64,000 bases of DNA, from positions 27,355 through 91,354 of the forward strand of contig JAUWLS010000001.1 in NCBI GenBank assembly GCA_030613565.1. The letters are read 5' to 3'. Origin of the DNA: Candidatus Shapirobacteria bacterium (GTDB lineage Bacteria; Patescibacteriota; Microgenomatia; UBA12405; JAUWLS01). Under the pieces are notes generated by a model. The model searched no databases. It was not told the origin of the DNA and saw only the letters and a program-made list of their open reading frames with translations. Positions 52,443 to 53,215 of this stretch are shown piece after piece. Within the stretch, counting starts at the first letter, position 1, and every line of letters starts with the position of its first letter. The position numbers and the translations under genes were made by a program.

Positions 52443-53215
52443 CTCGAACTTATTTTATCAAAAATGGAGGTGTAAAACCCGAAGTTGGCCAATCGCGATA
52501 ACTCGCCATGATTAGTTCCGATATGGCGGTTGGAGTTGACCGCCTGCCTTGACCCTGACTCGGACGACGATCGAGAATGATGGTTTTGAATTGTGGTTTT
52601 TTGAAACGAAAGTTTTTAATCTTTTTTCTTGGTATTTTTGTGTGATTATTCTGTTTTTGGGTAATTAAGCTTTGGTTAAGCATTTGATGTCTTTCACCGT
52701 TTCGCGGTGAAGAAAACCAAGATATTGCATTACTCGCCCCTCAGGGGCACATATCACTTTCAAAACTCCCACCTCCTTACTCCCCCGAACTTTTACTCGT
52801 GCGCTTAGGACCCACTCGGTTTGGCTTCGCCTCCTCCGCTTTCGCAGACTCGTCTCAGACGGTCCAACCCTCGCTCCAATTACCTGACTCCAATCATCTC
52901 TACAGTTTCTCCTTGGCTCTGTGTAGGTACCCTTACTTGCCCCCACGCCTGCCATTGATAGTTCAAAACACACCTTGCCAGCCCCAACCACCCTACTGTT
53001 TTTCAGGACACTCAGTCCCACACCTTGCCACCCCAAACTCCTCGTCACGGGACTTCATTATTTATGCGGCCGCCGCCGTGAGCCAATCGCCCTATCCACA
53101 AAACCAACCCCTCTTTTCCTTTTCAGGGCGTCGGCGGCCTTATTTACCGGCCTTTCATGCCGGCGCCGGGGGCTCGGTTTGCGCCTTACTCTATCACTCA
53201 CACTAGATTAGTGAT
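52443..53215. other. GC-rich (about 55%) non-coding tract of roughly 780 bp: candidate large structured RNA or a foreign DNA fragment
   Basis: Abrupt composition shift. Only short ORFs overlapping on both strands. Internal near-repeats CACACCTTGCCA(G)CCCCAA. No universal rRNA motifs. Confidence 0.3.

Follow-up and report, generated by a model that had tools for sequence, protein, structure and literature searches.

What is a GC-rich tract of several hundred base pairs, devoid of any credible gene, doing in the 38% GC genome of a Candidatus Shapirobacteria bacterium? We addressed this question for the tract that lies next to a small open reading frame of 78 codons (ORF78) and a NUDIX hydrolase gene in a 64,000-nt stretch of contig JAUWLS010000001.1 (henceforth, the window; all coordinates are positions in it, and minus-strand features are read as the reverse complement). 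A sequence-only reading had described a non-coding tract of about 780 bp that truncates a carbamoyltransferase gene, and had left a large structured non-coding RNA (ncRNA), a fragment of foreign DNA and an assembly chimera as the candidates. Our analysis indicates that the tract is genuine, non-coding and maintained by selection; it is unevenly conserved, belongs to the accessory part of the genome and is associated with insertion sequences (IS). This conserved element without known relatives probably represents a rare gene for a large RNA from an as yet undescribed family, and the window holds a possibly crippled copy of it. In its specific form, the explanation that we tentatively favour, although it falls slightly short of being probable, is a minus-strand gene for a large, lineage-restricted structured RNA, located within a small accessory cassette.

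The tract is real sequence and not an assembly artefact. Read support at its two junctions, a check proposed with the initial description, was assessed using unitigs of run SRR12623517 from Logan, an independent assembly. One unitig (L002) corresponds to approximately 51522-52865 of the window and the other (L001) to 52842-54111, and both outer junctions of the tract are reproduced inside these single non-branching unitigs. L001 aligns to the window at 100% identity; the span of L002 was derived from gene positions, and its full overlap with the tract is 100% identical. The two unitigs part within the tract, where they overlap by 24 nt (52842-52865) at the hairpin GACCGTCTGAGACGAGTC, a split that strain variation or low coverage might cause; GC-rich, C-skewed sequence extends on either side of this internal break. 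Furthermore, an independent 7-kb contig from the Joint Genome Institute (JGI; sample 3300033145), hereafter L113, carries the same tract beside ORF78 and the NUDIX gene. It was found via P0004, the sole homologue of ORF78 among 5.8 billion proteins (78% identity). Positions 2352-2677 of L113 match 52407-52733 of the window at 84% identity, and positions 3093-4449 match 52734-54082 at 88%. In L113, tRNA-Pro and recA adjoin the tract at one end, and ORF88, the NUDIX gene, an intact IS30-family transposase gene and ddl follow at the other. The RecA relatives at 71-74% identity are named Candidatus Shapirobacteria by NCBI, and the host is thus a bacterium of that neighbourhood within the Patescibacteria, or candidate phyla radiation (CPR).

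The jump in GC content that first drew attention to the locus is borne out, with values of 0.52-0.575 against a mean of 0.39. In 200-nt windows, GC is 0.525-0.575 across 52700-53200 and 0.27-0.40 in the flanks, and a 457-nt core starting at 52731 represents the GC maximum of the entire 64 kb (0.56, about 5 standard deviations above the window mean of 0.388, sd 0.034). The GC skew of -0.3 to -0.4 at 52700-53200 renders the plus strand C-rich and the minus strand G-rich; read on the minus strand, the 457-nt core consists of G 0.385, A 0.263, C 0.175 and U 0.177. The GC-rich part is, however, shorter than the 780 bp initially proposed and spans about 490 bp (52700-53190), whereas 52576-52700 is AT-rich (GC 0.29) and 52439-52575 is of ordinary composition. 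Similarly, the left boundary had been placed where the carbamoyltransferase frame breaks off. That frame, opened by the ATG at 52269, does stop at 52442 after 57 codons, but homology to carbamoyltransferases ends at about codon 42 and the true left edge of the tract is at 52395. Among the internal repeats noted in the initial description, the 20-nt repeat at 52969-52988 and 53019-53038 is real (90%), but just one of its two copies is kept in L113.

The tract is non-coding, in agreement with the earlier impression that it holds no credible ORF: the ORFs present overlap on both strands, have low-complexity translations and are not conserved in L113. The two copies differ by several 1-nt indels, one 3-nt indel and one 415-nt indel, and a 1-nt indel in an A run disrupts a 77-aa ORF of the AT-rich segment (52576..52733). 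Non-synonymous codon differences are about twice as numerous as synonymous ones in all six frames and in every ungapped block. Recoding of stop codons was considered and rejected, given that no frame contains fewer than two kinds of stop and that four of the six contain all three. The concatenated six-frame translation of the L113 tract gave no protein match at E ≤ 1e-3 among the 5.8 billion proteins, in a search that depends on shared words, and the single ORF called on that tract is absent from the protein collection.

Nor does the tract have a recognizable relative among the structured RNAs in Rfam, including rRNA, RNase P, tmRNA, SRP, 6S, riboswitches, ribozymes, GOLLD, ROOL, OLE, HEARO, raiA and DUF3800 motifs. 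At the gathering thresholds of Rfam 15, the sole match in the whole window is tRNA-Pro at 55194-55267, and a permissive search (E ≤ 10) of 52200-53500 and of L113 2100-3700 produced chance-level matches only, the best being skipping-rope with 16.4 bits against a threshold of 36.7. The covariance models bear out the failure of the sequence-only reading to match rRNA, RNase P, tmRNA or group II introns by eye. RNase P, tmRNA, introns of groups I and II and the 11-nt tetraloop receptor were rejected both by eye and with Rfam, and a role as a CsrA sponge was rejected because GGA motifs do not exceed the number expected from composition. Searches for further DNA copies were equally negative. Neither copy of the tract had a blastn match in the phage and plasmid collections, and a two-copy nhmmer profile detected no additional copy, whether elsewhere in the window or among the relatives. 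Of six pattern scans of IMG/VR viral contigs, the five derived from conserved blocks were matchless and the one with the internal repeat pair yielded an unrelated tandem repeat. A scan of metagenomes with this pair, GGCAAGGTGTG..TGGCAAGGTGTG, retrieved 109 tandem repeats, all unrelated, without any homologue. The 12-mer TGGCAAGGTGTG is repeated every 50 nt in a large tandem-repeat family (unit of about 50 nt, GGAAACCTTGACTCACATAGAAACAAGGTGTGGGAACCTTGGCAAGGTGT; loci L004-L112), which is found on many JGI metagenome contigs, in samples Ga0214542-Ga0214545 and others, and is unrelated to the tract. A scan of genome contigs, in a collection without the source genome, with a 19-mer of the most conserved block gave three chance matches, none of which extends beyond 19-21 nt; two of the three clearly lie within a homologous protein gene.

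Comparison of the two copies reveals strikingly uneven conservation, and part of the tract is as constrained as the adjoining protein. Across 52576-52980, 21 of 403 aligned sites are mismatched. This divergence of 5.2% is at the level of the first and second codon positions of the NUDIX gene (4.0%) and well below that of its third positions (16%; Fisher p 1.5e-4), whereas the other parts of the tract diverge by 22-36% (p < 1e-9). Identity falls to 70% in the palindrome at 52395-52438 and to 58% in a hypervariable loop at 53080-53130. Both copies keep 55% GC in genomes of 38% GC. The block of tract, ORF78 and NUDIX as a whole is 88% identical between the two genomes, compared to 78% for recA and 69% for ddl; it thus counts as accessory and has been either recently exchanged or unusually constrained. 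In reduced genomes, 1 kb of non-coding DNA is costly, and its retention implies use.

The tract shows weak to moderate signs of RNA structure. For the core read on the minus strand, RNAalifold predicts 121 pairs, among which the substitutions between the two copies include 3 compensatory changes and 10 one-sided, wobble-compatible ones, with 0 broken pairs. The clearest compensatory helix is formed by GGCCGCCG/CGGCGGCC in the window (53132-53139 with 53068-53075) and by GGCCACCG/CGGTGGCC in L113, where G-C is replaced by A-U; it encloses the hypervariable loop. The alifold z-score of the core is -3.6 (mononucleotide column shuffles), the signal lying mainly in the first 200 minus-strand nucleotides, and the 5' domain of L113 alone reaches -2.3. 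Several details read directly from the alignment and the fold output favour the minus strand. Its hairpins have GAAA and GUGA tetraloops, the plus-strand equivalents of which are UUUC and UCAC; a U·G pair in CUGC-GAAA-GCGG corresponds to C-G in L113, and on the plus strand would be a C·A mismatch; and the symmetric tandem GA/GA internal loop in CAUCCC-GA-CC-GAA-GG-GA-GGGAUG exists on the minus strand only, with UC/UC on the plus strand. Further hairpins of the core are GGC-GAA-GCC, CGUC-UGA-GACG and GCCCC-UGA-GGGGC. The 5' domain contains the hairpin CCGGC-AUGAAAG-GCCGG and the stem AGUCCC/GGGACU in addition to the helix around the hypervariable loop (~53080-53130), and the AT-rich segment holds the hairpin CACCG-CGAAA-CGGUG (52695-52709).

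A considerable number of observations weigh against a structured RNA on this strand. The observed covariation score is reached by 54 of 500 shuffles, and covariation cannot attain significance because only two copies are available. When the minimum free energy fold of one copy was confronted with the substitutions of the other, there was no excess of preserved pairs (e.g. 27 broken versus 22 expected). GC-rich hairpins, which the sequence-only reading had pointed out, are indeed present, but the single-sequence fold of the whole tract equals that of shuffles (z of -0.12 and -0.75), and dinucleotide-shuffle z-scores for the window copy are non-significant for the whole tract (-0.12), the 5' domain (-1.2) and the core (-0.5). 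The plus-strand alifold z of -4.2 is equally good. G·U accounts for approximately 21% of the predicted pairs, suggesting that composition dictates the fold, and the best-conserved 400 nt are without thermodynamic signal, that is, conserved as sequence and not visibly as helices. Neither a consensus promoter (sigma-70 scan) nor a terminator was found on the minus strand, and all the genes nearby are plus-strand genes. The four-fold sites of the NUDIX gene (4 of 34 differ) are too few to demonstrate that the core evolves more slowly than neutral sequence. Finally, the window copy lacks the 415 nt present in L113, is situated among pseudogenes and may be defunct. The large structured ncRNA is the best surviving of the candidates initially put forward, although it is unproven, with no Rfam family, two copies only and a negative permutation test.

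From the features considered above, we infer the transcription, strand and fold of such an RNA as follows. Transcription of the minus strand would start in the 52-bp spacer between the tract and ORF78, divergently from ORF78-NUDIX, to yield an RNA of about 0.8 kb in the window and about 1.2 kb in the fuller copy of L113. On its minus strand, the spacer contains TTGTAT-N17-ACTAAT, with both hexamers invariant and the spacing sequence varied, which fails the sigma-70 consensus scan. The RNA would comprise a variable 5' multi-hairpin domain, a conserved purine-rich core, the 415-nt hairpin domain (in L113) and a conserved, largely unpaired A/C-rich stretch, and the putative RNA gene, ORF78 and NUDIX constitute an accessory block of 1.7-2.1 kb beside IS30-family elements. 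Perfect hairpins with GNRA loops follow one another along the 415-nt segment (z of -3.65 on the minus strand and -4.09 on the plus strand), which is bounded by similar GCCCC-N3-GGGGCGAGUAA modules in direct repeat. Judging from the alignment, the window copy would be a deletion derivative without this domain.

As for a role, the RNA could act in trans as a protein- or ribosome-binding scaffold, perhaps with the co-inherited NUDIX protein; this is speculative and prompted by the conserved single-stranded stretch and by UAAGGAGGUG, which suggest a partner such as the 3' tail of 16S rRNA or a protein. UAAGGAGGUG is a perfect extended Shine-Dalgarno-like sequence on the minus strand at 52775-52766, with the counterpart UAGGGAGGUG in L113; about 0.002 occurrences are expected in the core from composition, and the small ORF that follows it (UUG start, 32 codons) is not kept in L113. 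The plus strand at 52766-52775 reads CACCUCCUUA, which resembles the 3' tail of 16S rRNA. Given the sub-threshold similarity of the NUDIX protein to RNA pyrophosphohydrolases and NAD diphosphatases, its co-inheritance with the tract raises a possible link to RNA 5'-end chemistry. In the boldest formulation, which we regard as doubtful, the tract and its 1.2-kb counterpart in L113 would be the first two representatives of a novel RNA class, large, modular and structured, in CPR bacteria, carried with an orphan protein and a NUDIX enzyme on an IS30-associated cassette, with the core and the A/C-rich arm binding a cellular partner, possibly the ribosome via UAAGGAGGUG, and with hairpin domains gained and lost. 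If the tract is an RNA gene, it is a mobile and modular one, paired with a NUDIX enzyme. Large structured RNAs without known function are rare, and the OLE, GOLLD, ROOL and raiA classes all proved biologically unusual. Our search of the literature found no report of such a large structured RNA from the reduced genomes of CPR bacteria.

The most serious competitor, unlikely as we consider it, is that IS30 activity brought in foreign or mobile DNA, of which the tract is a functionless, decaying relic, and that the uneven conservation reflects a mosaic history of recombination between diverged copies. The locus certainly bears the marks of wreckage, with a cut carbamoyltransferase gene, two IS30 remnants containing the same stop and a truncated PD-(D/E)XK nuclease gene. 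The closest RecA relatives (87%, 85% and 84% identity; L117-L120 and L122) and L121 carry no tract, tRNA-Pro having been found only in L117-L119, and two copies are all that very large collections provide. The window copy has undergone a 415-nt deletion under this scenario, the structure tests are weak, and the block, at 88% identity, would be much younger than recA (78%) or ddl (69%), leaving little time for decay. Against this stand the lack of any donor among proteins, phages and plasmids, the 400-nt stretch that is conserved like the non-synonymous sites of the adjoining gene next to stretches differing by 22-36%, the persistence of 55% GC in both copies in 38% GC genomes, and the compensatory change in the helix around the hypervariable loop. 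The same searches leave unsupported the earlier suggestion of a fragment of a known foreign gene: there is no protein match in any frame, no match to phage or plasmid DNA and no conserved frame. If the tract is just a relic, the locus remains a record of gene destruction in such genomes by IS30 activity and a palindromic foldback junction.

A structured RNA gene on the minus strand also has to be weighed against a plus-strand product, namely, a pyrimidine-rich leader or read-through RNA of ORF78-NUDIX that regulates these genes in cis. The orientation of the surroundings speaks for it, the flanking genes of both genomes (in the window, the HD gene, the carbamoyltransferase fragment, ORF78 and NUDIX; in L113, tRNA-Pro, ORF88 and NUDIX) all lying on the plus strand, with no terminator found between the upstream genes and ORF78. 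A promoter-like TTGACC-18-GAGAAT is present on the plus strand at 52549-52578, just upstream of the most conserved part, but its -10 element has decayed to GGGAAT in L113. Similarly, CACCUCCUUA, as a mimic of the 16S rRNA 3' tail, could mask a ribosome-binding site, yet ORF78 has no Shine-Dalgarno sequence to mask. The plus-strand alifold z of -4.2 notwithstanding, the composition of this strand (G 0.175, C 0.385) entails the loss of all G·U pairs, its fold has -98.6 versus -132 kcal/mol, and its UUUC and UCAC loops and internal UC/UC are not known stabilizing motifs. A domain of 415 nt in one copy only is also hard to fit with a fixed cis-regulator. We therefore consider a leader rather improbable.

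More improbable still is that the tract serves at the level of DNA, with a small mobile cassette using it for recombination, attachment, transposition or replication and with tandem repeats as protein-binding sites. The ends of the block are sharp and common to both genomes: homology between the window and L113 ends exactly at 54082, where an IS30 end starts in both, and on the left a hairpin marks the edge, which in L113 directly follows tRNA-Pro. The 3' end of a tRNA gene is a classic integration site. In L113 (2352-2395) only the loop and the right arm of the palindromic junction are present; they immediately follow the 3' end of tRNA-Pro, and the loop is inverted. L113 2352-2383 corresponds to 52426-52395 of the window, reversed, at 94% identity. 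Compared to L113, the window thus has an inverted edge-hairpin loop and a duplicated arm, resulting in a long palindrome against the carbamoyltransferase fragment. This arrangement suggests a foldback- or hairpin-mediated rearrangement, and such an intermediate would suit a DNA site. Two tandem 13-mers, AAAACCACAAUUC and AAAACCAUCAUUC, lie in the AT-rich segment (52575-52600), and three tandem units of about 14 nt with (A/G)UUGGA(G/C) occur on the minus strand of the core (52855-52895), all candidate protein-binding sites. However, no integrase, Rep or relaxase gene is found in the block, nor do ORF78 and NUDIX have such matches; 0.8-1.2 kb far exceeds the need of such sites; the high GC content and strong purine skew are atypical of att or ori regions; and the left edge does not resemble the IS30 ends. 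Chimeric assembly, or contamination by an organism of higher GC, which the abrupt GC change and the break of the Logan assembly at 52842-52865 might evoke, is barely conceivable and is refuted by the unitigs that reproduce both outer junctions, the C-skewed GC-rich sequence on either side of the break and the occurrence of the tract in another sample, among genes of a related Shapirobacteria-like organism.

As a putative large RNA gene, the tract invites comparison with GOLLD, ROOL and OLE. Like these, it extends over several hundred to more than 800 nt, is non-coding, has many hairpins with GNRA loops and a GC content well above that of the host, and is associated with mobile or accessory DNA, being located beside a tRNA gene in L113. 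GOLLD is less conserved in its 5' part and highly conserved in its 3' part (PMC12286853), and the tract, read on the minus strand, is also variable at the 5' side and conserved at the 3' side. By contrast, it matches none of the covariance models of GOLLD, ROOL, OLE, HEARO and raiA at E ≤ 10. The tract further differs from GOLLD, ROOL and OLE in its absence from the phage collections searched, in being represented by two copies with no covariation support, in its unusually purine-rich (65%), C-poor composition and in that the tRNA is on the opposite strand. Long GC-rich intergenic regions in AT-rich genomes are the selection criterion for structured ncRNAs in the GC-IGR and DIMPL approaches (PMC6429828, PMC8723152) of the Breaker laboratory; the tract is such a region, but these approaches need many homologues and there are two here.

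ORF-less introns of group II or group I resemble the tract in size, mobile-DNA context and the interruption of a gene, and the minus strand starts with GUGUG like the 5' end of group II introns. Unlike them, both copies lack D1-D4 and domain V/VI (RF00029) as well as the group I P3-P8 core (RF00028) at E ≤ 10, and reading of the fold and the alignment disclosed no 34-nt hairpin akin to domain V. Moreover, carbamoyltransferase homology stops at 52395 without resuming, and relative to that gene the G-rich strand lies antisense. A survey of complete genomes detected no group II introns among the Patescibacteria (PMC13011429). The locus also recalls an IS30 composite or cargo unit in that inverted IS30-like remnants bracket 51552-54081 and the right end of the block is an IS30 end in both genomes. 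It departs from such a unit in several respects: the IS itself does not include the tract, its copies are pseudogenes, the one next to the block has a different orientation in L113, and the left edge at 52395 is inside the bracketed segment and not at an IS end.

Table 1. Features of the tract and its surroundings in the window (identities are to L113 unless stated otherwise).
Feature	Position	Strand	Evidence
Left IS30 arm, 5' end of a degraded IS30-family transposase gene	51386..51551	-	166-nt, 99% inverted repeat; in-frame TAA
HD-domain gene	51608-52267	+	Lies upstream of the carbamoyltransferase fragment
NodU/CmcH-type carbamoyltransferase, N-terminal fragment of ~42 codons	52269..52395	+	Pfam PF02543 Carbam_trans_N, profile 3-42/346, E 1e-6
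Palindromic junction, 19-bp stem and 6-nt loop; left edge of conserved block	52395..52438		Inverted repeat, 89% complementary
3' tail of putative RNA, ordinary composition, poorly conserved	52439..52575	-	73%; 32 transitions, 5 transversions; alifold z -0.6
AT-rich, almost invariant segment	52576..52733	-	A 0.51, C 0.21, G 0.08 on minus strand; 96% (52576-52700), 91% (52701-52733)
Position of the 415-nt extra segment of L113 (L113 2678-3092)	52733..52734		Alignment of the two copies
Purine-rich conserved core (G+A 65%)	52734..52980	-	92-98% per 50-nt window
Less conserved 5' domain	52981..53190	-	78%, 58% in loop; alifold z -3.5 to -5.1 (minus-strand columns 1-200)
Spacer between tract and ORF78, 52 bp, presumed divergent promoter region	53191..53242		86%
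ORF78, orphan small ORF (78 codons) co-inherited with the tract	53243..53479	+	Single homologue P0004 (L113), 78%, no gaps
NUDIX hydrolase gene, third block member	53587..54039	+	Pfam PF00293, E 1.3e-10; 92% nucleotide identity
Right IS30 arm, IS30-family remnant	54082..54247	+	Inverted repeat; L113 4916-5207 = window 54523-54236 at 69.5%

The carbamoyltransferase gene to the left of the tract is indeed cut, as the sequence-only reading had stated, but not by a simple insertion, in that the rest of the gene never resumes and the left edge of the tract adjoins tRNA-Pro in L113. Neither the full N-terminal domain nor the C-terminal domain of a carbamoyltransferase is present, which makes this a gene fragment, and its frame continues through unrelated sequence to the stop codon at 52440-52442. 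The fragment is absent from L113. In the window lineage, the rearrangement that created the palindromic junction would have set the block against the carbamoyltransferase gene and destroyed it. The two IS30 arms, which bracket the 2.5-kb segment 51552-54081 comprising the HD gene, the carbamoyltransferase fragment, the tract, ORF78 and NUDIX, carry the same premature TAA stop, as read directly from the sequence. They are homologous to the 279-aa transposase of L113, which combines PF13936 (HTH_38) and PF00665 (rve) and thereby qualifies as IS30. The Logan unitigs stop 30 nt inside each arm, and the orientation of the 2.5-kb segment is beyond the reach of short reads alone.

To the right of the tract, ORF78 has no match in Pfam, PHROG, NCBIfam or PADLOC, and a profile search retrieved no real distant relative, only a spurious repeat translation and weak similarity to NHL/SBBP-like repeats; its AlphaFold model (pLDDT 52.8) is unusable. 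At the nucleotide level ORF78 is 82% identical to its counterpart in L113, with 12/10/21 mismatches at the three codon positions, a pattern that weakly favours the plus-strand frame, and its status as a real gene is uncertain. A 90-codon antisense ORF (53198-53470) is open in both genomes, as is ORF78. In the NUDIX gene, mismatches by codon position are 7/5/24, and the best NCBIfam similarities of its product, all sub-threshold, are to RNA pyrophosphohydrolases and NAD diphosphatase. The proteins of the block are all singletons at 90% identity.

Beyond the block, the PD-(D/E)XK nuclease gene is intact in L117 (274 aa; 4922-5746) and truncated in the window (54380-54844), where an IS30-like remnant enters at approximately 54516. 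A conserved element upstream of recA (CAATCTTCGGCTTTTCTTCGGTTTTGC..TTGACT) is duplicated at 56363-56398 and 57290-57325 and flanks a DUF3800 gene (56431-57207). L117 has no DUF3800 gene between ddl and recA, and the gene therefore looks like a cassette inserted in the recA promoter region with duplication of the promoter. Finally, two 37-nt direct repeats, CCTCAGGCCCCAGCTCCTAAACCCCAACCACAGC, which are 92% identical and 90 nt apart at 59321-59447, probably represent a proline-rich repeat within a coding region.

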